A stretch of 64,000 nt of DNA, taken from sequence record MT446392.1; one strand, given 5' to 3'. Below are positions 805 through 60,222 of the stretch, one piece after another; within the stretch, counting starts at the first letter, position 1; every line of letters starts with the position of its first letter. The DNA is from Escherichia virus TH15. Below the pieces are notes generated by a model. It was given only the letters and a program-made list of their open reading frames with translations, had not been told where the DNA came from and did not search any database. Made by a program: the position numbers and the translations under genes.

Positions 805-2637
805 ATGATTGAAAATAAAATTGAAATGCTTTCAGATAAAGACCATTGTTTGAAACGTCCGGGAATGTACATAGGAAGTGTTTCATATGAAGAATACGAA
901 AGATTTTTATTTGGTGAATATACTAAAGTATCTTATGTGGCGGGTGTATTAAAACTAGTTGATGAGATTATTGACAACTCGGTTGATGAAGCTATACGTA
1001 CAAATTTCAAATTTGCCAATAAAATTTCCGTTGATATTTCTTTGACTGATAACAAAGTTACTGTTGAAGATAATGGCCGTGGTATTCCACAAGCTGTTGT
1101 CGTAACCCCAGAAGGGGAAGAATTGCCTGGACCGGTGGCGGCATGGACGAAAACCAAAGCGGGTGGGAATTTCGGTGATGACAAAGAACGTGTGACCGGT
1201 GGCCAAAATGGTGTGGGTTCAAGTCTTACTAATATTTTTTCAATCCTTTTTACGGGGACCACATCTGACGGTAAAAATGAGCTTCGTGTAAGTTGTTCAA
1301 ATAACGCCGATAATGTATCATGGAAAACCAAACCGACCAAATCCAATGGCACCAAGGTTGAGTTTATTCCAGACTTTAGCCATTTTGAAATGAACAGTTT
1401 TGATAAAATTTATCTGGATATTACTCTTGACCGTCTGCAGACTCTTGCTGTTGTTTATCCTGATATTGAATTCAAATTCAATGGTAAAAAGGTACAAGGT
1501 CAGTTTAAAAAGTTTGCTAAACAATATGATGATGAAATCATTATCCAGGAACAAGATAATTGCTCAATTGCAATCGGTCGGTCACCTGACGGATTCAGAC
1601 ATCTGACTTACGTCAACAACATCCACACAAAAAATGGTGGTCACCATATTGAATGTGTTATGGATGAAATGTGTGATGTGTTAATCCCAGCAATTAAACG
1701 CAAGTATAAAATTGAAGTAACCAAAGCACGCGTTAAAGAATGTATTACATTGTTGATGTTTATTCGCAATATGAAAAATATGCGGTTTGATTCCCAGACT
1801 AAAGAGCGATTGACTTCTCCGGCTGGTGAAATTAAATCACATATCCAGGTTGATGGCAAAAAGTTGGCGGGCTCGCTGTTAAAAACAGAAGCTATTCTGA
1901 TGCCCATTATTGAAGCTGCATTGGCTCGTAAATTGGCCGCAGAGAAAGCTGCAGAGACTAAGGCGAATAAGAAAGCTTCGAAGGCCAAGGTACAGAAACA
2001 TATCAAGGCTAACGAATGGGGCAATGACAAGCTGGAAACGACTCTGTTCCTGACCGAAGGAGATTCTGCAACGGGGCCATTCATCAAGGTTCGTGACCGT
2101 GAATTGCAAGGCGCTTATCCGTTACGCGGTAAGTTCAAAAACACATGGGGTCTGAAAGCTATTGAAGTTATGAAAAACGCAGAAGCCTTTGATGTGTGTG
2201 CGATTACTGGATTAACGATTGGACAACCAGCCGAGAATATGAATTACCGAAATATCGCTATCATGACAGATGCAGATGTGGATGGTGTTGGTAGTATCTA
2301 TCCATCGTTATTGGCATTTTTCAGTAACTGGCCGGAGCTGTTCCATGAAGGACGTATTCGCTTTGTGAAAACTCCTGTTATTATTGCACAACTCAAAGAT
2401 AAACAAGAATGGTTCTATTCTCTCCCTGATTATGAAGAAGCTAAGGATAAACTTCCAAAGCATACCATCAGATATATCAAGGGACTGGGTTCTCTGGAAG
2501 ATTCCGAGTACAAACGAGTATTACTCGAACCAGTATTCGAAGTTGTTCAATTACCTGACAACTGGAAAGAACTGTTCGAAATGCTTTTCGGTAAAGAACC
2601 GAAGCTGCGCAAAGATTGGATGAATGCGACGCTATAA
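805..2637 (+). CDS. 39: DNA topoisomerase II large subunit (gp39), uninterrupted
   Basis: N-terminus MIENKIEMLSDKDHCLKRPGMYIGS matches T4 gp39; GyrB-like motifs throughout; AGGA SD upstream. Track start 799 is TTG, trimmed to ATG 805. Confidence 0.9.
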   Translation: MIENKIEMLSDKDHCLKRPGMYIGSVSYEEYERFLFGEYTKVSYVAGVLKLVDEIIDNSVDEAIRTNFKFANKISVDISLTDNKVTVEDNGRGIPQAVVVTPEGEELPGPVAAWTKTKAGGNFGDDKERVTGGQNGVGSSLTNIFSILFTGTTSDGKNELRVSCSNNADNVSWKTKPTKSNGTKVEFIPDFSHFEMNSFDKIYLDITLDRLQTLAVVYPDIEFKFNGKKVQGQFKKFAKQYDDEIIIQEQDNCSIAIGRSPDGFRHLTYVNNIHTKNGGHHIECVMDEMCDVLIPAIKRKYKIEVTKARVKECITLLMFIRNMKNMRFDSQTKERLTSPAGEIKSHIQVDGKKLAGSLLKTEAILMPIIEAALARKLAAEKAAETKANKKASKAKVQKHIKANEWGNDKLETTLFLTEGDSATGPFIKVRDRELQGAYPLRGKFKNTWGLKAIEVMKNAEAFDVCAITGLTIGQPAENMNYRNIAIMTDADVDGVGSIYPSLLAFFSNWPELFHEGRIRFVKTPVIIAQLKDKQEWFYSLPDYEEAKDKLPKHTIRYIKGLGSLEDSEYKRVLLEPVFEVVQLPDNWKELFEMLFGKEPKLRKDWMNATL

Positions 2638-2679
2638 ATAGATGTGGGAGAATATTCTCCCGTCTTATAGGAGAAGTCC

Positions 2680-2832
2680 ATGAAAAAGTGGTGGGTTACG
2701 TTGTCAAATGGCGAATACGGTTATCTGTGGGCCGATACTAAACCCTTGTTTGCATCCTTTGTCACCATTATGTGTGAGACCTGGGATGGTGAATACTATA
2801 CCGCATATGGGCAAGTCTATAAAGTTGAGTAA
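2680..2832 (+). CDS. Small hypothetical protein (50 aa, Trp-rich)
   Basis: ATG preceded by AGGAG; flanked upstream by a perfect 16-nt palindrome and downstream by an intrinsic terminator. Confidence 0.3.
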   Translation: MKKWWVTLSNGEYGYLWADTKPLFASFVTIMCETWDGEYYTAYGQVYKVE

Positions 2833-2834
2833 CC

Positions 2835-2859
2835 AAAGGACCTTCGGGTCCTTTTTTAT
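2835..2859 (+). terminator. Intrinsic terminator (UUCG tetraloop hairpin plus T-run)
   Basis: aaaggaccttcgggtccttttttatt. Confidence 0.7.
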
Positions 2860-2907
2860 TATGTACAGGCCACAAAAATTGTGTTAAGATGTCCTTGAGG
2901 TGAAAAT

Positions 2908-3207
2908 ATGATTATGTCTGACGGAAGTTTAGTTAATCTGCAGAATGTCGCGCGATGCATTATGGAAGCTGGTCTGAGGAAGGTACAGGAGCTCCCAGAT
3001 AGCGACAGGAAGCGAAGTTACTTGTTGGCTGTAAGAACATCAGCCATGAGCATAAAGGATGGTCAGAAGGTCCCAGAGGAGCGAATTGAAGCACTCCTTG
3101 CATTGATATACCATGACCAAGAACATAAAGCTACCATGCGTAGTATGAGAAAAATATTGCAGGAGATTGGAAATGACGAACTTCAAAGTGAATCTGGAAC
3201 TGTTTGA
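2908..3207 (+). CDS. Hypothetical early protein
   Basis: ORF with GAGG SD; positional analogue of T4 rIIA.1-region ORFs. Confidence 0.4.
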   Translation: MIMSDGSLVNLQNVARCIMEAGLRKVQELPDSDRKRSYLLAVRTSAMSIKDGQKVPEERIEALLALIYHDQEHKATMRSMRKILQEIGNDELQSESGTV

Positions 3208-3376
3208 CAAGGTTGTCCATAAAGAATACCGTGTTATCCAACGATTTTTTGATATAAGAGAAGCTGAAGAGTTTAAAGAACGCTTCAAAGAAATCCGTAT
3301 TAAAATAGCTTCAGACACCGCAACAAAGGATGAACTTCTTGAAGTTGCAGACTTATTCAAACGTAATATAAAGTGA
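3173..3376 (+). CDS. Hypothetical protein (67 aa)
   Basis: ATG at 3173 with AGGAG SD 7 nt upstream (track start 3167 is TTG); overlaps previous ORF. Confidence 0.35.
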   Translation: MTNFKVNLELFDKVVHKEYRVIQRFFDIREAEEFKERFKEIRIKIASDTATKDELLEVADLFKRNIK

Positions 3377-3383
3377 GAAAAAC

Positions 3384-5618
3384 ATGATTTTAGAAACTGA
3401 AAAAGAAACAATCCTTGGTAATGGTGCCAAGGCATCAGCATTCACAATCCAGGCATCTCCAAAGGTGTTTAAGATTCTGACCAGCGACCTTTACACAAAT
3501 AAGGTGCGTGCAGTTGTTCGTGAGCTGATTACCAATATGATTGATGCTCATATGCTCAATGGCTGTCAGGATAAATTCATTGTTCAAGCTCCTGGTGAAC
3601 TGGACCCACGCTTTGTGTGTCGTGACTTTGGCCCAGGTATGAGTGATTTCCAGATTCGTGGTGATGAAAATACCCCAGGTCTGTATAACAGTTTCTTTGC
3701 ATCATCCAAGGCTGAATCCAATGATTTTATTGGTGGCTTTGGTCTGGGTTCTAAATCTCCGTTCAGTTATACAGAGACGTTTAGCCTGATTTCGTATCAT
3801 GATGGTCAAGTTAATGGTTATGTCGCTTATATGGATGGTGATGGTCCACAGATTAAGCCAACCTTTAGCGAACCAATGAAACCTGGCGACCGCACAGGGA
3901 TTGAAGTTGTTGTCCCGGTTGATAGTAATGATTTTGGTAAGTTCCGCCACGAGATTGCATATATCATGCGCCCATTTGCTGGACTGGCTGAAGTACAAGG
4001 CGTAGGCGAAATTAATTATTTCCCGGAATTTGATGATTATTATGCTCCAGAGCGTATTAATTATAGCAGCCCAGAACGTTATGGTCTTTATGCAATTTAC
4101 GGTGGAATTGTTTATCCAATTGCCGACGGTTATACAAAGAAAACCTGGATGACTGCCAAAAATGATGTTGTCTTTATTAAGTTCCCGATGGGTTCGTTGG
4201 ATATTGCGCCTTCTCGCGAAGCATTATCACTGGATAAACGTACGGTCGCAAATATCGTTGAACGTATTGAATCCCTTGATAAGAAAGTCATGGAAGATGA
4301 TTGTAAGAAATGGCAGGAATCAGAATGTATCCGCCACACGTATCGCGAATTACAGAGTCTGAGTTATGAAGCTCGTAATTTTCTGAAAGCTCGTAATGCT
4401 GAAACGAAATTTACGAAATCGCAATTGACCTTTAACCAGATGTATGAAATGTTCGAGCTGGACAAAGACCTTATTAATGCCGGGGTTGTCTATGATATCT
4501 ATAGCACTACCCGTCTGAAACGTCTGCGTAACTCAAGCTCGAACACGAATACTGCAAGCCTGACGAGCATGTTTGGTATTCAGAATAATACCTTGAACAT
4601 TGTTATTGACGATGCTAAAGGGCGAATTGCGATGATTCGGGGCATCAGTTCAATGCTGTATGACACCAGCGCGAAAGCCAAAAAGCTCAAAGCATCTGGT
4701 AAAGTCCCGACTGTACAAGGTAGTAGCCTATTGTTCGTTGACCCAACCAGCGAAATTCAAACACGTCTGATGGTTCAACTCCAGGAACGATTTAAAGGCG
4801 ATACAGTTAATATCTATCGTACGTCTGAACTGACTGCCCTTGTAAAAGATTGGATTCCGGTTGCGGACCCGAAAGAGCGTGTTAAGTCAAAGACTCCATC
4901 GGTGATTCGTTGGACTAAAACTAATGGTCGCTGGCAGGCTGTTGAAGAATTTACATGTGCAGCTGATGCAGAGGAAATCGATGGTTATGCTGTATTCATT
5001 AACCGCAGTAGCATTTCCCCGTTGAATCAGGATTATGGCGTCACGAACTTCGGGACCCAGACATTGTGCAAACTGGCGAATCTACTGGAAATCAATGAAT
5101 TCTGCGTTATTCGTCCACAGCTTCAGAAAAAGGTTACTAAGCTGGCGCAGTGTGATTGTTTGATTGAAGCTGCAGTCAATCGTTATGTGGAATTGATTGA
5201 TGCGGTTGATGCGGACCAGTACATTGCCGCTTCAAGCCGTTCGCGTTATTATATTCCTATCCTGTCTGAATATGCAGAACTGAATTTTATGTTCAAGTAT
5301 TTTTATGCAAAAGACGTTCAGAAAGATGTGAATACTGACTATGCCGAACTAATGCAGTTCAATAAGTTCTTTTCTTATAACGCATATAACAGCGGAACGG
5401 TTGACAAGACCATGCAGGAAACTCTGGTCCTTTGTAATAAGATTTATGACGACCTGACCAAAAACGCTTCAGTAACAAGCGATAAAATGGTTTTTGAATT
5501 TGAAAAGAATCACCCGATTGTTTCACACTTTTTATATAATCGTAACGCTATGTCAACTGAACAAGTACAGAACGTTGCTCAAATCATGAAGGCCGTGGAA
5601 GCGGCCAATAAGGAATAA
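3384..5618 (+). CDS. rIIA: rIIA membrane-associated protein (lysis-inhibition / Rex exclusion target)
   Basis: 744 aa versus T4 725 aa; position between 39 and rIIB matches T4 synteny. Confidence 0.85.
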   Translation: MILETEKETILGNGAKASAFTIQASPKVFKILTSDLYTNKVRAVVRELITNMIDAHMLNGCQDKFIVQAPGELDPRFVCRDFGPGMSDFQIRGDENTPGLYNSFFASSKAESNDFIGGFGLGSKSPFSYTETFSLISYHDGQVNGYVAYMDGDGPQIKPTFSEPMKPGDRTGIEVVVPVDSNDFGKFRHEIAYIMRPFAGLAEVQGVGEINYFPEFDDYYAPERINYSSPERYGLYAIYGGIVYPIADGYTKKTWMTAKNDVVFIKFPMGSLDIAPSREALSLDKRTVANIVERIESLDKKVMEDDCKKWQESECIRHTYRELQSLSYEARNFLKARNAETKFTKSQLTFNQMYEMFELDKDLINAGVVYDIYSTTRLKRLRNSSSNTNTASLTSMFGIQNNTLNIVIDDAKGRIAMIRGISSMLYDTSAKAKKLKASGKVPTVQGSSLLFVDPTSEIQTRLMVQLQERFKGDTVNIYRTSELTALVKDWIPVADPKERVKSKTPSVIRWTKTNGRWQAVEEFTCAADAEEIDGYAVFINRSSISPLNQDYGVTNFGTQTLCKLANLLEINEFCVIRPQLQKKVTKLAQCDCLIEAAVNRYVELIDAVDADQYIAASSRSRYYIPILSEYAELNFMFKYFYAKDVQKDVNTDYAELMQFNKFFSYNAYNSGTVDKTMQETLVLCNKIYDDLTKNASVTSDKMVFEFEKNHPIVSHFLYNRNAMSTEQVQNVAQIMKAVEAANKE

Positions 5619-5619
5619 T

Positions 5620-6594
5620 ATGTTTAATATCAAATGTATGTCTAAAGCCGAACAAGCTGATGTGGTCCAGATGTATTCAACGGGCAATTATACCCAGCCT
5701 GAATTGGCAGAATATTTTGCTGTGTCCGTTGACACCATTCGCCGCGTTTTGAAAAATGATAAAGAATCAAAATTAGCTAAAACCATTTCTGCATCACTGA
5801 AAGCAGCTGTTGGTGTGGCGATTAATGCTCCGGTGACAGTAACGGTTGAAGTTCCGGTTGTTGAAGATACAATCGGTGGAAGCCGCCCGGAAATCGTATG
5901 GAACGCATCGAGTAAATTCGTTTCCATCACTGAAGGCCGTACAGTCTGGAACGCAACAAAAGACCATAAACACTTTGATGATATTATTCAGGCATTGATT
6001 GAATTCCGTTATGAAGATGCTATTGAGTATATCTCAATCAAAGCCGCAGTGCAAAAATATGTGAAAGGTGATGTGCGTATCGAAGGCGGTAGTTTGTTCT
6101 ACCAGGGAATTGAACTGCGCTCTGGTCTGGTTACTCGTATCATCGATTCAATGCAAAATGGCGAAGACTTTGAATTCTATCTGCCATTCCTTGAGAATCT
6201 CCTTGAGAACCCGAGCGAGAAAGCCGTACAGCGTTTGTTTGACTTCCTGGTTGCGAATGATATCGAAATCACCGAAGACGGTCATTTCATCGCCTGGAAA
6301 ATGGTTCGTTCAACCTACAAAGATTGTCACTCAAACACATTCGACAACAGTCCTGGTCAATATGTTAAAATGCCACGCTCTCGTGTGAATGACAATGACG
6401 AACAGACCTGTTCAACCGGGCTGCACGTTTGTTCTAAAGGTTATATCGGAAGTGGTTTTGGTCATGGTGATGGGCGCATCGTATCCTGTAAAGTTCACCC
6501 GCGTGATGTTGTAAGCATCCCGGTGGATTATAACGATTCCAAAATGAGGGTTTGTGGTTACCTGGTTCTTGACGATGTAACTGAACAATTCTAA
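5620..6594 (+). CDS. rIIB: rIIB protein
   Basis: N-terminus MFNIKCMSKAEQADVVQMYSTGNYTQPELAE and C-terminal HPRDVVSIPVDYNDSKMR closely match remembered T4 rIIB. Confidence 0.85.
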   Translation: MFNIKCMSKAEQADVVQMYSTGNYTQPELAEYFAVSVDTIRRVLKNDKESKLAKTISASLKAAVGVAINAPVTVTVEVPVVEDTIGGSRPEIVWNASSKFVSITEGRTVWNATKDHKHFDDIIQALIEFRYEDAIEYISIKAAVQKYVKGDVRIEGGSLFYQGIELRSGLVTRIIDSMQNGEDFEFYLPFLENLLENPSEKAVQRLFDFLVANDIEITEDGHFIAWKMVRSTYKDCHSNTFDNSPGQYVKMPRSRVNDNDEQTCSTGLHVCSKGYIGSGFGHGDGRIVSCKVHPRDVVSIPVDYNDSKMRVCGYLVLDDVTEQF

Positions 6595-6627
6595 ATTAAT
6601 CGGGGCTTCGGCCCCTAATGAGGCTTT

Positions 6628-6825
6628 ATGTTAGGTTTCCAAGCACGTGTAGTTGAAGAATATGACCAACTGGTCCTAAAAATCAATGCTCTTGAAGAGT
6701 TTATTAAAGGTGGTATTTTTGAAACTCTTGATATCCGTCAACAAGGGTTACTGATTGCACAGCTGGATGCGATGGGTGCTTATGCTCATTGTTTAGCAGT
6801 TCGTATTTCTTATTTTGGTGAATAA
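6628..6825 (+). CDS. Hypothetical protein
   Basis: ORF with GAGG SD, directly after a GC hairpin downstream of rIIB. Confidence 0.3.
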   Translation: MLGFQARVVEEYDQLVLKINALEEFIKGGIFETLDIRQQGLLIAQLDAMGAYAHCLAVRISYFGE

Positions 6826-6828
6826 ATT

Positions 6829-7098
6829 ATGATTAAGCATTTCAATGTGTCAGACCGTGACATCAAAGTTTCAAATCTCCGGGGTCATCATTATGCAGGA
6901 ACAGTTTACTGTGGTAAGCTCATCAAGCATGAAGGTGATGTTCACTATGGCTGGTTGGAATGTGATGAAGTAGTTGTTGGGGAATTTCCTGACCCAGATT
7001 CTGATACATTTGATGCTAATGACCGTTTGTACTATGGCGAGCTTCATATCCGAGGAATCGTCGGTATCGATGAGGTTCAAGATGATTCAGAAGAGTAA
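6829..7098 (+). CDS. Hypothetical protein (acidic C-terminus)
   Basis: ORF of 89 aa, tightly packed after the previous ORF. Confidence 0.4.
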   Translation: MIKHFNVSDRDIKVSNLRGHHYAGTVYCGKLIKHEGDVHYGWLECDEVVVGEFPDPDSDTFDANDRLYYGELHIRGIVGIDEVQDDSEE

Positions 7099-7675
7099 AA
7101 CATGGGAGCATCTGAAAAAGATGCCCTCCTTTCTTTATACAAAGGAAGACTTAACACCCGAATCCATGCAAAAGATTGTAGACACTGCCAGGTATTCATT
7201 GCGTAAAGACCCAGCCCAGGACCGCGAGCAAGTCATGCAAAGATGTATGGTGGCTACAATGGCCGAACAAGCTATTGCCAAATGGACCTCCGGTTTCTTA
7301 TGTGGCGGCGATGAAGATTACAATAACCCGTTCTCTTTTGCATTCGATGTAGTCTCCCAGGAAGGGGTAAGAATCGAAGTTAAGACTCACCAATCTGGCT
7401 CCAAATGGATATCCGTGCATACTGGTCACCAGGGCGATTATCCACGTGGTTACGGAGTTAATCTTGGGCCCTTTATGCAACACAAGCTTGCTGACCTTAT
7501 GATTATGTTTAATGTAAAAGAGACTATCAAAGGTTATAGATTTAAACCAAAATTCCTTGCTGGACCTGGTGCTTTCGTTCCTGAGTCTGGACTTGTGCAG
7601 AAGTCACAAGGGGATGGCTGGTACCTCCGTTCTTGTTCAGAAGAAAAATTTCCCTATCACCGGTTTACAAGCTGA
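7082..7675 (+). CDS. Hypothetical protein; positional candidate for denB (endonuclease IV)
   Basis: About 197 aa from the internal ATG with GAGG SD; lies between rIIB and ndd where T4 carries denB (185 aa). Identity not verified by sequence. Confidence 0.4.
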   Translation: MIQKSKTWEHLKKMPSFLYTKEDLTPESMQKIVDTARYSLRKDPAQDREQVMQRCMVATMAEQAIAKWTSGFLCGGDEDYNNPFSFAFDVVSQEGVRIEVKTHQSGSKWISVHTGHQGDYPRGYGVNLGPFMQHKLADLMIMFNVKETIKGYRFKPKFLAGPGAFVPESGLVQKSQGDGWYLRSCSEEKFPYHRFTS

Positions 7676-7720
7676 ACCAACTGTGTAATAATGTCCTCAT
7701 ACCAACAAATGAGGACATTA
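7663..7720 (+). promoter_or_regulatory. Putative early promoter plus 12-bp SD-sequestering hairpin upstream of the ORF at 7723
   Basis: GTTTAC 7663-7668; AT-rich -10 near 7686-7691; perfect stem 7689-7700 / 7709-7720 containing GAGGA. Confidence 0.45.
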
Positions 7721-7722
7721 TC

Positions 7723-7998
7723 ATGGAACACGTTACTACTCATCACATCAAACAAATTCTTATTCAAGCACTCAAAAACAACAACATCAATTTTCCAACC
7801 CATGAAATTTTTGATGTGGTATTCAACGAAGTCCAGGGCCAAGTTGCATATTATGACGTTATCGTTTATCTTTCAGAATTTGAAGTCTACCACTTGACTG
7901 AAATCGCCTTCTATCTCTATCGCGGAACAGCAGATTTTACTGGGGTCGTGAATGCAGTTGGTGCATATAAAGAAGTTAAAGAACAAATGCACAATTAA
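7723..7998 (+). CDS. Hypothetical early protein
   Basis: ATG 3 nt after a 12-bp perfect hairpin that contains the GAGGA SD; track start 7633 is upstream of the predicted promoter. Confidence 0.45.
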   Translation: MEHVTTHHIKQILIQALKNNNINFPTHEIFDVVFNEVQGQVAYYDVIVYLSEFEVYHLTEIAFYLYRGTADFTGVVNAVGAYKEVKEQMHN

Positions 7999-8000
7999 TC

Positions 8001-8056
8001 AAAAAGTAGTGTACATCAGTATGGAGTCTATGTATAATGATTCCATACTGAGTTAC
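8001..8056 (+). promoter_or_regulatory. Early promoter cassette copy 1 (TGTACA -35, 17-nt spacer, TATAAT -10, conserved leader gattccatactgagttac)
   Basis: -35 at 8010-8015, -10 at 8033-8038; 9-bp inverted repeat (8018-8026 / 8042-8050) encloses the -10. Confidence 0.6.
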
Positions 8057-8072
8057 CAAACTGGAGAATAAA

Positions 8073-8228
8073 ATGAAACCTGCTCAATATGCAATGACTT
8101 TATACCTTGAAGTTAATGGCGATATTACTGAATTTTTTAAATTAATGCAACAGCGTGGTAAAAGTTTTGCAGTTACCGAGCGTCAATTTTACGCTTGCCG
8201 TAAAAATACATACAATCGTTACGCGTGA
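8073..8228 (+). CDS. Small hypothetical protein (51 aa)
   Basis: First ATG downstream of promoter cassette copy 1, with GGAG SD. Confidence 0.3.
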   Translation: MKPAQYAMTLYLEVNGDITEFFKLMQQRGKSFAVTERQFYACRKNTYNRYA

Positions 8229-14892: not shown

Positions 14893-15542
14893 CGTGTACG
14901 CCCGAGCGTACGACCTGCTTGTCCACACATAGCAGAAAGTCTATCAAAACCAAGGTCTGGTTTCTGAACGTACCAATACAAAGAAACTGTACCTGCGTAA
15001 ACGTTCTCTAGATTAAAGAATGGGCAGCTGAACATATATGCGAAGCTGCTTTTTTTCTTTGTTGGTAAGAATACAAATTCATTACTGGATTCAAAATAAT
15101 TACCATTAACCCCCGCCAAATATTCCGCTGAAGTCTTATCTATTGGAAACCCACCCAAATTTTTCTCGTCAACTGTATCAGGCAATCTCCCTTCGTATCC
15201 AACCATATCCACAAAGTAATTAAGGTTAGTTGGTCTGAAGGAATAAATGGCTGTAAAGTCAGCTCCACTTGATGAATGGACTATCTGGATTTGCTCGATA
15301 GCTGCAATTTTAAATCTGTTGTCCTGGTCTTGCCTTATCATTTCAGTGTACGAGGCATATGAAGCATCCCTGTATGCATCTAAAATTGCATCACCTTTAT
15401 ACCAGATTACCGCCATTAAAAATAATAGAACAATAACTAGTACCCGGGAAAAGACAACTTTCCCGGTCGCATTATCTTTAAAAATTCTATCAAGAAGTCC
15501 AAAAAGTAGGTCGGGGATTGAGATTCCTACTTTTGGTTCCAT
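14889..15542 (-). CDS. t: Holin T
   Basis: 217 aa; DLLFGLLDRIFKDNATGKV, SGADFTAIYSFRPTNLNYFVD and YMFSCPFFNLENVYAGT match remembered T4 holin. Confidence 0.9.
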   Translation of the reverse strand: MEPKVGISIPDLLFGLLDRIFKDNATGKVVFSRVLVIVLLFLMAVIWYKGDAILDAYRDASYASYTEMIRQDQDNRFKIAAIEQIQIVHSSSGADFTAIYSFRPTNLNYFVDMVGYEGRLPDTVDEKNLGGFPIDKTSAEYLAGVNGNYFESSNEFVFLPTKKKSSFAYMFSCPFFNLENVYAGTVSLYWYVQKPDLGFDRLSAMCGQAGRTLGRTR

Positions 15543-15560: not shown

Positions 15561-15568
15561 TATTTATA
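15561..15568 (-). promoter_or_regulatory. Late promoter TATAAATA for holin t
   Basis: Minus-strand TATAAATA 18 nt upstream of the t start, followed by AGGAG. Confidence 0.55.
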
Positions 15569-49971: not shown

Positions 49972-51504
49972 ATGATTTTAGATATTTTAAATGAAATTGC
50001 TGCAACCGATTCTACGAAAGAGAAACAAGCTATCCTGGAATCGTATTCTGAAAATGAAACGCTTAAACGTGTGTATCGTTTGACATATTCCAAAGGTATT
50101 CAGTTTTATATCAAGAAATGGCCAAAACCTGGGACAACGACTCAAAGCTTTGGCATGTTGAATATAAGTGATATGCTTGACTTTATCGAATTCACATTAG
50201 CACCTCGTAAATTAACAGGTAATGCTGCAATCGAGGAATTATCGGGTTATATTGCTGATGGTAAAAAAGCAGATGTTGAAGTCCTGCGCCGTGTGATGAT
50301 GCGTGACCTGGAATGTGGTGCATCCGTATCGATTGCGAATAAAGTTTGGAAAGGCTTAATTCCTGAACAACCGCAGATGCTCGCTTCTTCCTATGATGAA
50401 GCTGGTATTGCCAAGAACATTAAGTTCCCGGCCTTTGCGCAATTGAAAGCCGACGGCGCTCGGTGCTTTGCAGAAGTTCGTGGCGATGAGTTGGATGATG
50501 TTCGATTGTTATCCCGAGCCGGTAACGAATACCTCAAGCTTGACCTTCTTAAAAAGGAATTGATTGAAGCCACCCGTGAAGCGCGTGAGAGACATCCTGA
50601 GGGCGTTTTGATTGATGGCGAGTTAGTATATCATGAACAGAAAACAGTTGCCCAGGATGATGGTTTGGCCTTTCTTTTTGACGATACAGAGCAAGCCGAG
50701 ACTCAAATTGAATCTGCGGAATCTCGTACTAAGTCAAACGGTCTAGCGAACAAATCATTAAAAGGAACTATCACTGCGGTTGAAGCAGCTGGCATGAAAT
50801 TCCAGGTCTGGGATTATGTTCCGTTGATTGAAGTGTATTCAGATGTTAAAATTCTTAACCCTCTGAAATATGATGTGCGGTTCGCGGTATTAGAGAAGAT
50901 GATTGCAGATAACGTGGTGCTTCATGGCTACGACCGTATGATTCTGATTGAAAACCACGTGGTTAATAACCTCGAAGAAGCCAAAGCCATCTATAAGAAA
51001 TATATTGCTTTAAAGCTCGAAGGTATTATTCTTAAAAACACTGCAGCTCCTTGGGAAAACAAGCGCTCTAAGAATATGTACAAGTTCAAAGAAGTTATTG
51101 ACATCGCTTTGGAAATTATCGGATTCTATGAGCACGAGAAAGACCCAAATAAAATTGGTGGTGTTGTGCTTCAATCTTCTTGCGGTAAAATTGTTACCAA
51201 TTGTGGGTCAGGCTTCAAAGATACAACACAAGTCAAAGACCCGAAGACTAAGAAATGGACTATTATCCCAATTGATGAGCGTCATGAAATGGACCGCGAA
51301 GCTCTTATGATTAAGGCTTGCAAAGGTGAATTAGTTGGAATGATTGCTGATTGTGAATGTAATGGTTGGTTAACTTCTGAAACTCGTAAAGATAATACTG
51401 TTAAACTGTTTCTTCCGATTATCAAAGGGTTCAGATTCGATAAAGATAAGGCAGATACTTTCGAAGAAGTATTTGGCGACTGGTCACAGACGGGGTTAAA
51501 ATAA
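49972..51504 (+). CDS. 30: ATP-dependent DNA ligase
   Basis: 510 aa; long stretches identical to remembered T4 ligase, including adenylation lysine motif QLKADGARCFAEVRGDELDDVRLLSRAGNEYL. Confidence 0.95.
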   Translation: MILDILNEIAATDSTKEKQAILESYSENETLKRVYRLTYSKGIQFYIKKWPKPGTTTQSFGMLNISDMLDFIEFTLAPRKLTGNAAIEELSGYIADGKKADVEVLRRVMMRDLECGASVSIANKVWKGLIPEQPQMLASSYDEAGIAKNIKFPAFAQLKADGARCFAEVRGDELDDVRLLSRAGNEYLKLDLLKKELIEATREARERHPEGVLIDGELVYHEQKTVAQDDGLAFLFDDTEQAETQIESAESRTKSNGLANKSLKGTITAVEAAGMKFQVWDYVPLIEVYSDVKILNPLKYDVRFAVLEKMIADNVVLHGYDRMILIENHVVNNLEEAKAIYKKYIALKLEGIILKNTAAPWENKRSKNMYKFKEVIDIALEIIGFYEHEKDPNKIGGVVLQSSCGKIVTNCGSGFKDTTQVKDPKTKKWTIIPIDERHEMDREALMIKACKGELVGMIADCECNGWLTSETRKDNTVKLFLPIIKGFRFDKDKADTFEEVFGDWSQTGLK

Positions 51505-51507
51505 CAA

Positions 51508-51528
51508 AAGGGCTTCGGCCCTTTTTTA
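51508..51528 (+). terminator. Intrinsic terminator downstream of DNA ligase
   Basis: aaagggcttcggcccttttttag. Confidence 0.75.
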
Positions 51529-51529
51529 G

Positions 51530-51537
51530 TATAAATA
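51530..51537 (+). promoter_or_regulatory. Late promoter TATAAATA for alt
   Basis: TATAAATA directly after the ligase terminator, 25 nt upstream of the alt ATG. Confidence 0.6.
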
Positions 51538-51562
51538 CATCATATTTTATAAGGAACCTATT

Positions 51563-53614
51563 ATGTCTGAACAATTAAATGAACTCTTTGACAAATATAT
51601 CGAAACCTTCGGTTATCCTGTCATTAATATGAATCCAAAATACAAGGTCCCACAGGTTTGGCAATTCGGTGTTCCTGGGACCAATTCTCTTATGGCCCGT
51701 TTGATGCAATTCACGGGCAAAGAAACAGTTAAACAATATAAACGTGGTGATGCAATTGCCGAGGTATTCCTGCTCTCCGGGACTTCACACGGTCATGCTG
51801 TTCCTCTGAAGGGTGGCCTAGGTGAAAAACCTCTTGATGCGATTAACCTGATTTTTACCACAGTCTGGGAAAGTATCAAACTAGGCAAACCTGATGTAGT
51901 CTTGTTCCGTTTCCCCTCCAAAAAGATGAAAGGTCAAGAGCAAGCTGTTATTCGTATTATGAATCGACTGATTCAAATGAAAACTTCCGGGCGTTATCAT
52001 GTTCTTCCGAATGCATCTGGTCTCGGTAAAAAGAACGCTTATGTAATTATGTACAAAAAGGGTGTTGACCTACTGTCGGTTGATGGTATGCCTCCAGTCC
52101 CTGAGAAATATCAAAAAGTCACAACAAAAGTTGGCGACGTATTCACCAATAAAGATAACGGTGCACAAGTCTCCAAACAAGAAATCGCAGCCGAAGTTCT
52201 GATTGATGCCGCAAACAAAAAGACCGATGCTTCTGTTGCACAGAAAACTAAAATCAGTCGCCGAGCTATTGCACAAGCCCAGTATGCACCAAATGAGAAT
52301 GTCCCAGAAGGTTGGGATGAAATTGATGCAGAAGCTGCTAAATTTAGTCGACCTGCGACTGCTGAATTAATTGATGATGCCGAAGAACTGGAAATTTTTG
52401 TTCGACCTTCTGAAACGAATACTATGGCACGTATGCGCGCAGCAGATATGGCTATGCGAGCAAATGGTGTTTGGAAAGAAGAAATTCGTGTTGAAGACAC
52501 TGACCCAATTTTTAACCGTATGCACCGTGAACTTAAACGTGCTCCAGTCGGCAGTATGAAGCAGATGCAGATTTTTGCCGAATCATGTGCAGAAATTCTT
52601 AACCTTCGTAAAGCTGCATTTATCGAAAGAAAAATGAATGATGCTCCCCCTAACCTGGATGCAGCCACTTATGCAGCCACGCTCTGGGAAGAAGAATACA
52701 CAAGCGCCATTCGTGTTGCAGTTAAAGACTTTGCCGAAGAAGCATCAGAAAATACTCTTAATTTCACAGCAGGGTATACTGACAACCGTTTCCATTATGG
52801 CCAGCGAGAAGCAATTGCAGATTATTGTGGAGCAAACTATGTCGATATTAATAATTATTTGATGGGTAATTATTATGAAGAAGATGCTGAATTCCTAAAT
52901 CTGGACAGAGTTGTCGAAACAATTAAGGAATTGGATTCGGCCTTTGAAATTGGACATAAGTTGCCACCCGATACAACTCTTTGGCGTGGTCAATATTTAA
53001 ATGTTCCTACATTTAATAAAATTAAGCAATCGAAATTATTTTATTTCAGGAACTATGTATCAACGTCGTTTAAACCGATTATCTTTGGTGGCTGGGTGGC
53101 GAACGTTGCTATGGCCGCAGTTCATCAGGACTATCGTGATGGGACATCTTTCCAGGCTGATGACGAAATTGTTTTACCAAATATTCCGGGTGCAAACCCA
53201 GATAACGCAATGATTCATGTTGGTTGGAAAATTTCTGGGGCGGACTTAATTAACGTAATTGTTCCCGGCGAATTGTCAGGAAACCCGACCGAGCAAGAAG
53301 TTATTCTTCCTCGTGGAACTATAGTTAAGATTACAAAGATTACGGATGCGTCGTATCAAGGAAATGCGAACGTCAAAATGCTGGAAGCGGATATCCAGAC
53401 CACTGACCAACTGGATGAAAATGCAGTTATCTATGATGGTGATGTGTTGATGGAAACTGGCGAGCTTGTCGTTTATAAAGGCGAGGAACCAGAAGAATCT
53501 GTTGACTTCGCATCGTTTGCATCCTCCAGGGTGACGAAGAAAGTCAACCAAGGCCTTGGTATTCTTGCTAGTTGTATTAATTTGGAAAGTATTCCTCCTA
53601 AATTCCTTTCATAG
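51563..53614 (+). CDS. alt: ADP-ribosyltransferase Alt-like (virion-packaged ART)
   Basis: 683 aa versus T4 682 aa, adjacent to ligase as in T4; late promoter upstream; C-terminal ART-type R / STS / ExE motifs (FRNYVSTSF, EQEVILPRG). Confidence 0.75.
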   Translation: MSEQLNELFDKYIETFGYPVINMNPKYKVPQVWQFGVPGTNSLMARLMQFTGKETVKQYKRGDAIAEVFLLSGTSHGHAVPLKGGLGEKPLDAINLIFTTVWESIKLGKPDVVLFRFPSKKMKGQEQAVIRIMNRLIQMKTSGRYHVLPNASGLGKKNAYVIMYKKGVDLLSVDGMPPVPEKYQKVTTKVGDVFTNKDNGAQVSKQEIAAEVLIDAANKKTDASVAQKTKISRRAIAQAQYAPNENVPEGWDEIDAEAAKFSRPATAELIDDAEELEIFVRPSETNTMARMRAADMAMRANGVWKEEIRVEDTDPIFNRMHRELKRAPVGSMKQMQIFAESCAEILNLRKAAFIERKMNDAPPNLDAATYAATLWEEEYTSAIRVAVKDFAEEASENTLNFTAGYTDNRFHYGQREAIADYCGANYVDINNYLMGNYYEEDAEFLNLDRVVETIKELDSAFEIGHKLPPDTTLWRGQYLNVPTFNKIKQSKLFYFRNYVSTSFKPIIFGGWVANVAMAAVHQDYRDGTSFQADDEIVLPNIPGANPDNAMIHVGWKISGADLINVIVPGELSGNPTEQEVILPRGTIVKITKITDASYQGNANVKMLEADIQTTDQLDENAVIYDGDVLMETGELVVYKGEEPEESVDFASFASSRVTKKVNQGLGILASCINLESIPPKFLS

Positions 53615-53616
53615 GG

Positions 53617-53646
53617 GTTTACAAGCACAAGGAAGTGCGATACAAT
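53617..53646 (+). promoter_or_regulatory. Early promoter (GTTTAC / TACAAT)
   Basis: 18-nt spacer; upstream of the ORF at 53678. Confidence 0.45.
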
Positions 53647-53677: not shown

Positions 53678-53968
53678 ATGAAATCATCTTTTCGCTTTAA
53701 TGGTCAGGAACTGGTAGTTGAGAATGTTATCCCAGCTTCAGAAGAGTTTGACAGCGCAGTGGGTAATGAATTACGCCGCGTGTTTGGTGAAGATAAGAAG
53801 TTTGACCTTCGCCCTGTTGAAAACTTTGTAAATTCTGAACAAACAGAAAATATTTTTAATGGTATAGTAACTGGGCAGCTTGAATCTGAAACGCCAATTG
53901 CGATTACAGTCTTTGTTAAGAAAGAAGCTGTAATGACTGTAGCAGGTTTCATTTCATTCCGCAAATAA
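53678..53968 (+). CDS. Hypothetical protein
   Basis: ORF with GAGGA SD ending at a bidirectional terminator. Confidence 0.45.
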   Translation: MKSSFRFNGQELVVENVIPASEEFDSAVGNELRRVFGEDKKFDLRPVENFVNSEQTENIFNGIVTGQLESETPIAITVFVKKEAVMTVAGFISFRK

Positions 53969-53998
53969 AAAAGGGACCTTCGGGTCCCTTTCTTTTTA
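53966..53998. terminator. Bidirectional intrinsic terminator between convergent plus-strand ORF and gene 54
   Basis: aaaaagggaccttcgggtccctttcttttt: hairpin flanked by A-run and T-run. Confidence 0.75.
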
Positions 53999-54955
53999 TA
54001 ATATACGTTGACTTCCACCAGAGACTGCTCTCCCAGAACCAGTGAACGTATTGTACAGACTTGTTAATCCAGATTGGGCACCAGACAGGCGACTCAATTT
54101 GGCAACTTCTGCGTTCAAGTTGTTATCTGAACTAATACCAGATACACCCTTAATAACCTTATCTTCCAACCATTCTAATGCAGCATTTCTTCCCACCGCC
54201 CCAGTTGACATAACGCGATAAGCAAAAGTCACATCAAATGTAGCTATCTGATTATCCCCTTCATAGCTCAATTCAGGCGCAGATACACTTACAGGAACAC
54301 AACCAGTTAACATAACAACCGTGTGTGGCAATCCATTACGTGAGTGAAGGTTGACCTGAATATCTGCTTCAACATCTTCAGGCAAAGCTCTTAGCTGGGT
54401 AACTGGGTCCTGTACAGAGTTAACCCAATCGTTAAATGCTCTGAAGTTCCCTGCCTCTGAATCCATTCTAAAGCTTAATACCAACGGAGAATATTCTCTC
54501 CCTGTTATCTTGATATTTGGTGCGTTATGGTTAAGGTCCATTTCGTAGTTCAATGTGTTGTCCGGAAGCTTAACGGAGTGAACTAATAGCCCGGCCGTTG
54601 GATAAGCCATATTAAAGAAATCAAGCAGGTAAGTACCAACCTCAAATTCCCCTAATAATGATTGCACAACACGGTTACTCATTGCCCCAATAAGATATTT
54701 GCTTATACCGGATTTACGAATAAGCTTTTGAGTTCCTGCAGTAACAAGAGTTGTTATTCCCTGGGTTAAGTCGCCTTGTGTTAAACCAAACCAATCCGAG
54801 TTAACAGGAAGGTTGCTGAATAATGCACCACCGAACTGGTCCAGAAGATTCTGGGATTTAGAGGAAGGCGCGGTCGCGAAGACCACGCTAAAAAGGTTAT
54901 TCCTCTGCAAGTCGATATTAATCGCTTGTGTTTGAAATTCTTGTAAAGTAAACAT
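53996..54955 (-). CDS. 54: Baseplate tail-tube initiator gp54
   Basis: 319 aa versus T4 320 aa; position downstream of gene 48. Confidence 0.85.
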   Translation of the reverse strand: MFTLQEFQTQAINIDLQRNNLFSVVFATAPSSKSQNLLDQFGGALFSNLPVNSDWFGLTQGDLTQGITTLVTAGTQKLIRKSGISKYLIGAMSNRVVQSLLGEFEVGTYLLDFFNMAYPTAGLLVHSVKLPDNTLNYEMDLNHNAPNIKITGREYSPLVLSFRMDSEAGNFRAFNDWVNSVQDPVTQLRALPEDVEADIQVNLHSRNGLPHTVVMLTGCVPVSVSAPELSYEGDNQIATFDVTFAYRVMSTGAVGRNAALEWLEDKVIKGVSGISSDNNLNAEVAKLSRLSGAQSGLTSLYNTFTGSGRAVSGGSQRIL

Positions 54956-56049
54956 TAGAAACCTTCCGCATATAATGAGCCACGGTTAAGCGTAATGATT
55001 TCACGGAAAGTGATTTCAAGTACAAAAGTCGATGGCAGGTTAGGAGCAATAGCTAATCCACCGAAATGACCATCCGGAGATTTATCGAATCTTATGCTCT
55101 GAATCTGACATGGCCCAAATAGCTCACCACGGCCATCGTATGAGCTTGTATCACCAAAGTTACGGATATACCAGATAGTAGGGTTAGAGACCACCAGAAC
55201 GTTCGTTAAGAAGCTTGTTATCTCTTCACCGAGCAACTTACCGTCAAAGTTATCGATTGCTTCCTTTTTGAAGGTGGATTTATACCACGTATCGATTTTA
55301 TCTTTCAGCTCGGAAGCAAACGAACTTTTACCGGTTTCCCCATATGAGTAATAGTTAAAAATCTCGTATATCTTCACTATCTGGATTAAGTCTTGCGCGC
55401 TACGTGGAGTCATTTCCCATGTGTAAACTTTTGTCCTGTTATCCGGACCAGCATACATGCTTCTTGCCGTTGTGTAAATCTGTTCGCCATGGTCGGCCAT
55501 TACACCGTTTGTAACTGATTCGAGTGCGCCAAAAACTGCAGTCGATGCGATGTTACTAAGAATACCAGTAGCTGAGCCGCCGCCTTTCGTAATAAGAGAT
55601 TCGCCAACATCATTGAATCGATGCGATACGGATTCTACATCAGACTTCGAACGAGGCAACAGGATATTTGCAACAGCGTTCGAATCAAAACTTTTACCTG
55701 TTGAACCGGAACCGGTTAATTTTGATTTAGCAAAAGATGTTAAACTTTTAACCGGGTTAAATGAAGCACCATTGGAAACTTTCTTTAATGAAGTCAATTG
55801 GCTTGACCGGTCTGAGCGTAATTCCGGAGATGTTCTTGAACTGAAATTGTATGCCGTGAATAACAGACCATTTTTATAAAGGTCATTAACTCGCATATCA
55901 TCTGAAGAATCATTACCGGAAGCTCGTTCTGCTGGATATTGTGCCACAATAGTAGCTTGAGTCTGGGCAGCTTTTGACTGCCCAGCGGAGGTCTTAGAAC
56001 CTCCGTTAAATAAACCCGCAATATCTAAATCGAGTTCTTTTACTTTCAT
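54955..56049 (-). CDS. 48: Baseplate tail-tube cap gp48
   Basis: 364 aa as in T4; synteny 29-48-54. Confidence 0.85.
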   Translation of the reverse strand: MKVKELDLDIAGLFNGGSKTSAGQSKAAQTQATIVAQYPAERASGNDSSDDMRVNDLYKNGLLFTAYNFSSRTSPELRSDRSSQLTSLKKVSNGASFNPVKSLTSFAKSKLTGSGSTGKSFDSNAVANILLPRSKSDVESVSHRFNDVGESLITKGGGSATGILSNIASTAVFGALESVTNGVMADHGEQIYTTARSMYAGPDNRTKVYTWEMTPRSAQDLIQIVKIYEIFNYYSYGETGKSSFASELKDKIDTWYKSTFKKEAIDNFDGKLLGEEITSFLTNVLVVSNPTIWYIRNFGDTSSYDGRGELFGPCQIQSIRFDKSPDGHFGGLAIAPNLPSTFVLEITFREIITLNRGSLYAEGF

Positions 56050-60210: not shown

Positions 60211-60222
60211 TATTTATAAATA
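60211..60222. promoter_or_regulatory. Overlapping divergent late promoters (TATTTATAAATA) for gene 51 (minus) and gene 26 (plus)
   Basis: The 12-mer reads TATAAATA on both strands, offset by 4 nt. Confidence 0.6.

Follow-up and report, generated by a model that had tools for sequence, protein, structure and literature searches.

An alt orthologue behind a late-promoter box in Escherichia virus TH15, predicted to encode a head-packaged ADP-ribosyltransferase of the T4 Alt type

The Alt protein of bacteriophage T4 (gpAlt; NP_049811, P12726) is a NAD+--arginine mono-ADP-ribosyltransferase (ART) and an internal head protein. Some 40 copies are found in the T4 prohead core, where they are trimmed by the gp21 protease, and the enzyme is packaged in the virion head and ejected into the host (PMC9958956, PMC9026906); it is non-essential (PMC9026906). 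Mass spectrometry located two cuts in T4 Alt, one at ITE-6 and a second, unexpected, at LTE-619; the latter costs the protein 63 C-terminal residues, and the product has a mass of 68.2 kDa (PMC5694885). Transcriptome and proteome data place both its transcript and its protein late, after gp33, gp45 and gp55 (PMC9697503). Among its many targets the chief one is Arg265 in one alpha subunit of RNA polymerase (PMC2988021). Two other T4 enzymes of the same R-S-E clade, ModA and ModB, modify host transcription and translation proteins (PMC5512222, PMC9503650). Here we describe the counterpart of alt in Escherichia virus TH15 (sequence record MT446392.1), within an analysed stretch of 64,000 nucleotides that we call the window. 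Judging from its sequence and by analogy with T4, the gene is very probably (about 0.9) the alt orthologue of a Gaprivervirus (VR7-like) T4-type phage, encoding an ADP-ribosyltransferase packaged in the head as in T4. It is a gene already known, annotated as alt in the near-identical published genomes of VR7 and its relatives.

The gene itself is defined as follows:

51563..53614, + strand: alt coding sequence, assigned from PHROG 802, collinearity with T4 Alt and 96.5 % amino acid identity to VR7 Alt

The open reading frame (ORF) runs from an ATG at 51563 to a TAG stop at 53612-53614 and encodes a precursor of 683 aa and 76.2 kDa. The product matches PHROG 802, 'Alt-like RNA polymerase ADP-ribosyltransferase', from end to end (residues 1-682, E 2e-225), and BLASTP with T4 gpAlt yields one collinear alignment (3-682 vs 2-680) at 36 % identity and E 1e-129. 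The homology is full-length and takes in the N-terminal domain that is specific to Alt. In Pfam, residues 413-606 match PF03496 (ADPrib_exo_Tox) at E 3e-19; the score of 69.6 bits exceeds the curated cut-off of 23.4 bits that marks membership of the R-S-E clade, and the match covers profile positions 19-189 of 196. The NCBIfam search of the protein matched 0 models. At the nucleotide level alt is 96.3 % identical to the gene of vB_EcoM_VR7 (Gaprivervirus) and 93-96 % identical to that of about 30 relatives, in whose annotated records it is mostly named alt or ADP-ribosyltransferase. Homologues were found by tblastn in 1,221 phage records, nearly all of T4-like phages of enterobacteria, Acinetobacter and Aeromonas. 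A ribosomal-protein match in PDB, obtained with a single-sequence phmmer search (E 0.62), was discarded as spurious; ARTs were reached only with the family profile.

A first-pass annotation made from the letters of this DNA had proposed an Alt-like ADP-ribosyltransferase. That identity is borne out by family profiles, homology to T4 Alt, synteny, alignment of the motifs to solved ARTs and the predicted fold, and the 683-aa ORF and its upstream elements are all present as described there.

The catalytic domain occupies the C-terminal part of the protein:

52790..53398, + strand: ART catalytic domain of the R-S-ExE type, approximately residues 410-612
52985..52987, + strand: codon of R475, the R of R-S-ExE, in predicted strand 473-480; invariant, aligned to the YR of a C3-like ART and Certhrax
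53060..53068, + strand: codons of S500-T501-S502 (STS), in predicted strand 499-502; aligned to the StS of Certhrax
53291..53299, + strand: codons of E577-Q578-E579 (ExE), at the start of predicted strand 579-582; next to an invariant LPRG

Alignments of 18 and 25 sequences show no variation at R475, S500, S502, E577 and E579, and at least 90 % of the sequences keep T501. Equally invariant are the neighbouring FYFRN and LPRG and, in a helix, Y421, Y426, N430, L433 and G435. Compared with solved structures, the family profile matches a C3-like ART, Certhrax, CPILE-a/BECa, Vip2, SpvB and C3, and the comparison with Vis in the catalytic-site analysis gives E 2e-7. The profile alignment places yR on the YR of the C3-like ART and Certhrax and StS on the Certhrax STS, and pairs EqEviLPR with both QyELLLPR of the C3-like ART (QxE) and EyEVLI of CPILE-a (ExE), so that the catalytic Arg, Ser-Thr-Ser and Glu-x-Glu that characterize the R-S-E clade are all aligned to solved enzymes. 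By analogy R475 would contact the NAD phosphate. The second Glu of ExE is the catalytic residue, and Glu rather than Gln in the first position is the form of arginine-specific ARTs; the ExE form of the motif in TH15 supports a predicted arginine specificity. An AlphaFold model, for which the input alignment was built without the T4 row, has a mean predicted local distance difference test score (pLDDT) of 77 and predicts the ART fold of the R-S-E clade with the catalytic motifs on the canonical strands.

The candidate R, STS and ExE motifs of the first-pass annotation are therefore real, and invariant except for T501. A profile search against the ART superfamily, which had been suggested as a check, gave the 69.6-bit PF03496 match and, with the family profile, reached solved ARTs. 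Because the motifs align with ART active sites, the failure to align that had been named as fatal to the proposal is not what we observe.

Immediately upstream of alt lie a hairpin, a promoter box and a ribosome-binding sequence:

51506..51527, + strand: intrinsic terminator of gene 30 (DNA ligase), with an 8-bp stem, UUCG tetraloop and T-run; called from sequence and fold
51530..51537, + strand: T4-type late promoter box TATAAATA (gp55/gp33-dependent class), 25 nt 5' of the ATG
51551..51556, + strand: Shine-Dalgarno AAGGAA, 6 nt before the ATG; read from the sequence

The ligase gene ends in a TAA codon at 51502-51504. As RNA, the hairpin that follows reads AAAAGGGC-UUCG-GCCCUUUU (51506-51525) and then UU; in DNA letters it is AAAAGGGC-TTCG-GCCCTTTT, followed by TT and two further bases before the promoter box. 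It folds at -11.2 kcal/mol (z = -3.0), with 0 of 200 shuffles as stable. The terminator pattern scanner lists this hairpin on the minus strand only, because it extends the stem into symmetric A/T arms and leaves no T-tail; on the plus strand the hairpin was checked by RNA folding instead. An equivalent hairpin stands upstream of alt in T4, VR7, PKO111, RB69 and QL01. The identical TATAAATA box is found at the same position 5' of alt in T4, VR7 and Klebsiella phage PKO111, and RB69 and QL01 have cATAAATA. The alt.1-alt intergenic region of T4 contains a UUCG hairpin, AGGCCTTCGGGCCT, then a few bases, TATAAATA, and the start of alt 28 nt beyond.

The late promoter claimed in the first-pass annotation is thus well placed: a perfect TATAAATA box, the sequence expected of a gpAlt-family late promoter, is present, and T4, VR7 and PKO111 all have this hairpin-promoter module ahead of alt. 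The position of the promoter directly against the ligase terminator, to which the annotation drew attention, is real but not special, since T4 has the module downstream of alt.1 and only the lack of alt.1 brings it up against the ligase gene in TH15. Across the window TATAAATA occurs 10 times against 4.4 expected, a count reached by 2 of 100 shuffles, and at least five sites (15561, 20349, 25507, 51530 and 60211) are just 5' of the start of an ORF on the same strand.

The protein also carries signals of head maturation at both ends:

51563..51583, + strand: predicted N-terminal propeptide, residues 1-7 (MSEQLNE), with the prohead-protease motif LNE at its end
53411..53419, + strand: predicted C-terminal prohead-protease site L617-D618-E619, aligned with T4 LTE-619
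53420..53611, + strand: predicted C-terminal propeptide, residues 620-683, 6.9 kDa, acidic

LNE-7 and LDE-619 align with ITE-6 and LTE-619 of T4, which are gp21 motifs, and would be cleaved in the same way. All 25 homologues have (L/I/M)-x-E at both sites, narrowed to (L/I)-x-E at the C-terminal one, with E7 and E619 invariant. The structural model drops below a pLDDT of 50 for residues 1-15 and 619-653, the latter predicted to be disordered, and the second drop falls exactly at 619. This C-tail is the region best conserved with T4 (55 % identity against 36 % overall); it includes a near-invariant motif, YDGD..LME(T/S)GEL, and within that another LxE (LME 629-631). A tail that is modelled with low confidence and is yet the best conserved part of the protein fits a functional propeptide. 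The predicted mature head protein comprises residues 8-619 and has a mass of 68.5 kDa, compared with 68.2 kDa in T4. The N-terminal region that the first-pass annotation judged consistent with capsid targeting is thus only partly borne out: by homology with T4 it amounts to a predicted propeptide of 7 residues ending in LNE-7, and the C-terminal propeptide, 620-683, had been missed.

Two further regions precede the catalytic domain:

51608..52282, + strand: N-terminal alpha/beta domain specific to Alt (N-domain), approximately residues 16-240
52295..52777, + strand: helical, poorly conserved linker, approximately residues 245-405; 22 % identical to T4 and all-helical in the model

Modelled alone, the N-domain reaches a pLDDT of 85.7 and a predicted template modelling score of 0.85. 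The linker has the lowest column conservation in the whole protein. Searches of a local Pfam library with the N-domain (1-245) and the linker (246-406) alone gave 0 matches at E 10, and at the same threshold the GST_C_4 match on the C-tail was set aside as due to chance; a precomputed annotation assigns PF26846 to the N-domain. As a possible member of the GNAT (GCN5-related N-acetyltransferase) superfamily, the N-domain would be expected to show a GNAT fold, the acetyl-CoA-binding motif A (Q/R-x-x-G-x-G/A) and profile similarity; in the 18- and 25-sequence alignments a conserved Gly-rich loop, K83-G-G-L-G87..P90, stands ahead of a long helix as a candidate for motif A. The N-domain family forms 67 clusters among 1.84 billion representative proteins and is invariably N-terminal in Alt-like proteins. 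Of ten atypical family members that were scanned, seven have PF03496, and the remaining P0085, P0090 and P0088 have degenerate ART-like motifs or none. On these grounds we rejected the idea that the N-domain is a swappable delivery module for other effectors.

P0085 has TSCS and NSE in place of the motifs, and P0090 and P0088 lack recognisable ones; P0085 and P0090 resemble shortened, degenerate relatives of Alt. P0088 (1142 aa) has about 650 extra residues without a Pfam match and carries degenerate ART-like motifs, in which NAS takes the place of STS and AEVLYP that of ExEvxLP.

The ligase-gene terminator is placed so as to insulate alt from early and middle transcription of ligase. If TH15 follows T4, RNA polymerase modified by gp55/gp33 would transcribe the gene late, and its 76 kDa product would enter the scaffolding core of the prohead, where the gp21 protease would remove residues 1-7 and 620-683. 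The resulting 68.5 kDa enzyme would stay with the packaged DNA, be ejected together with it when the next cell is infected and, using NAD+, mono-ADP-ribosylate arginines of host proteins before phage gene expression. The many minor targets of T4 Alt include MazF.

The degree of conservation between TH15 Alt and T4 Alt is dependent on the region of the protein:

residues 1-235, N-domain: 36 % identity to T4
residues 236-409, helical linker: 22 % identity to T4
residues 410-606, ART domain: 39 % identity to T4
residues 511-553, loop between STS and ExE: 13.5 % identity to T4
residues 607-683, C-tail: 55 % identity to T4

In Dhakavirus QL01 a single hairpin-promoter module is followed by three alt genes in tandem (1966-8226 of the QL01 locus compared). 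With the second of these copies the TH15 ART domain shares 76 % identity, while the ART domain of T4 is 62 % identical to the first. As the ART domains group with different QL01 copies, Alt has evidently split into sub-lineages, and TH15 carries another one than T4. By sequence comparison, different genera keep different sub-lineages and some phages keep several side by side. A different range of host targets for TH15 Alt, a possibility raised in the first-pass annotation, is plausible because its ART domain is 39 % identical to that of T4 but 76 % identical to QL01 copy 2. That Alt variants can differ in function is documented in a 2025 preprint (HIDEN-SEQ; 10.1101/2025.11.20.689424), which reports two of them as not interchangeable: T4 Alt helps to evade Mokosh type I, and the Alt of phage Bas37 could not replace it.

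How firmly should the gene be equated with a head-packaged Alt? As an alternative, read-through from ligase could express alt in the early or middle period and give an unpackaged product that acts like ModA or ModB: alt lies directly 3' of ligase, an early/middle gene of the same orientation, and the T-run of the intervening hairpin is short and interrupted (TTTTTTAG). A stable UUCG hairpin with a T-run nevertheless separates ligase and alt, a perfect late box occupies the conserved position, and both gp21 motifs, sensible only in a prohead-core protein, are conserved. Furthermore, alt mRNA and protein are late in T4 (PMC9697503), and the product has the size of Alt (683 aa) rather than that of ModA/ModB and contains the Alt-specific N-domain. 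We consider read-through expression highly improbable, and slightly more improbable still that the protein is catalytically dead or a purely structural component of the head core that has retained an ART-like fold. The non-essential nature of Alt in T4 (PMC9026906) and the degenerate or missing motifs of the distant N-domain relatives P0085, P0090 and P0088 would agree with a dead enzyme. However, R475, S500, S502, E577, E579, FYFRN, LPRG and Y421/Y426/N430 are intact across 25 homologues and T501 in at least 90 %, and motifs kept so strictly in proteins of about 36 % overall identity indicate that catalysis is under purifying selection.

Nothing contradicts the assignment to Alt, but some observations limit how far the likeness to T4 can be pressed. 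The enrichment of TATAAATA in the window (10 vs 4.4) is modest taken alone, and a literature search for virion proteomics of Gaprivervirus found none. At only 39 % identity to its T4 counterpart, and grouping with the other QL01 paralogue, the ART domain makes a weak case for equating its targets with those of T4 Alt, and the loop between STS and ExE (511-553) is only 13.5 % identical. A rival explanation retains the fold and delivery of T4 Alt and assigns the enzyme another job: the sub-lineage of Gaprivervirus and Dhakavirus copy 2 would modify a substantially different set of host proteins, for example defence or translation factors and not alpha Arg265, and would be mainly an anti-defence effector. 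The grouping of the ART domains (39 % to T4 and 76 % to QL01 copy 2 for TH15, 62 % to copy 1 for T4), the hypervariable loop (13.5 %) and the evasion of Mokosh type I by T4 Alt without substitution by Bas37 Alt (10.1101/2025.11.20.689424) speak for it, and the three diverged alt copies kept in QL01 suggest non-redundant specificities. Against it, position, regulation and processing signals are all conserved. T4 Alt is itself promiscuous (PMC2988021), and more than 30 targets are known for the three T4 ARTs (cited in PMC10468400), so that 'different targets' may be a matter of degree. We regard this explanation as possible but doubtful. A bolder hypothesis, which we think unlikely, is that Gaprivervirus Alt is a distinct functional type, orthologous to QL01 copy 2 and not to T4 Alt, with other targets or another anti-defence role, in which the conserved, putatively GNAT-like N-domain and the C-terminal propeptide might act beyond packaging, in substrate recruitment, cofactor binding or control of latency in the head. 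A packaged Alt of the T4 type is the reading we prefer.

The surroundings of alt contain the following additional features:

53678..53968, + strand: alt.-3 (DUF5498), supported by PF17602 (E 1e-33) and the VR7 annotation
53970..53991, + strand: strong UUCG-loop terminator closing the alt/alt.-3 unit and shared with the convergent gene 54; 9 pairs and a T-run

The order of genes is ligase (gene 30; 49972-51504), alt, alt.-3, gp54 (53996-54955, minus strand) and gp48 (54955-56049, minus strand). This order, 30-alt-alt.-3-54-48, is common to T4, VR7 and RB69 and is the conserved position of the gpAlt family. TH15 and VR7 lack the small gene alt.1, which T4 and RB69 have between ligase and alt (window 51505-51562 compared with T4 locus 7504-7749), and the alt.-1/alt.-2 remnants found 3' of alt in T4 are also missing from TH15. 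The mechanically called ORF of alt.-3 starts at 53645; the true start is probably the ATG at 53678, because the PF17602 match begins at residue 12 of that ORF and the VR7 annotation agrees. By scanner and fold there is no terminator between alt and alt.-3, the next strong one being at 53970-53991; a late transcript therefore probably spans both genes, which would be co-transcribed. The hairpin at 53970-53991 (-15.2 kcal/mol, z = -3.8) has T-runs on both sides and the same GC-stem/UUCG design as that at 51506-51525, and is likely a bidirectional terminator between alt.-3 (+) and 54 (-). Searching six-frame ORFs of the 64-kb window with an Alt-ART hidden Markov model revealed no second ART (next best E 0.079), and no ModA or ModB was found there with the Alt-ART profile.

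The 63 nt that separate alt from alt.-3 contain a sigma-70-like promoter match, TTTACA-17-TACAAT (10/12 positions; 53618-53646, plus strand), which might provide alt.-3 with early expression of its own. Inside alt, an antisense ORF (52111-52668, minus strand) would encode 185 aa of low complexity, rich in Ser, Ala and Ile; it is lacking from the VR7 annotation and is most likely a chance ORF. Elsewhere in the window, perfect TATAAATA boxes on the minus strand at 15561, 20349, 25507 and 60211 precede by 19-35 nt large ORFs that start at 15542, 20312, 25475 and 60186, as would suit late promoters serving genes for tail fibres and the baseplate. One intergenic region between divergent genes has two boxes, at 60211 (-) and 60215 (+), which overlap back to back.

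As a discovery the gene matters little, as its architecture, regulation and processing signals copy T4 Alt. Its value is comparative: the terminator/late-promoter module and both propeptides are conserved at 36 % protein identity, and the Alt sub-lineages are relevant given the reported differences in counter-defence, where T4 Alt and not Bas37 Alt allows evasion of Mokosh. Nearest to TH15 is the Alt of VR7, VR25 and VR26 (Gaprivervirus; HM563683 / NC_014792, YP_004063894), with 96.3 % nucleotide and 96.5-96.9 % amino acid identity over 683 aa. It shares with TH15 the neighbours 30, alt.-3, 54 and 48, the upstream hairpin and TATAAATA, and differs by a few percent of substitutions only; those records were annotated by similarity. 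Among the proteins compared, the closest outside the genus is the second alt product of QL01 (AKU42857, QL01_200; 63.6 % overall and 76 % in the ART domain), from a phage with three tandem alt genes where the TH15 window holds one.

T4 gpAlt is collinear with the TH15 protein (682 vs 683 aa) and has the same order of N-domain, helical linker, R-S-ExE ART and conserved C-tail, as well as the gene position, the terminator/late-promoter module and the two gp21 motifs (PMC5694885). It differs in having alt.1 5' and alt.-1/alt.-2 3' of alt, in an overall identity of 36 % and in its affinity to the other QL01 paralogue. The T4 enzymes ModA and ModB are set apart by their description as early, unpackaged proteins of about 200 aa without the Alt N-domain or propeptides. 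Further away, C3bot, Certhrax, Vis, Vip2, iota Ia, CDTa and CPILE-a (PF03496) show 10-23 % sequence identity; these C3-like and binary toxins are secreted bacterial proteins that act on eukaryotic actin, Rho or vinculin, and they have neither the N-domain and propeptides of Alt nor its late-promoter context.

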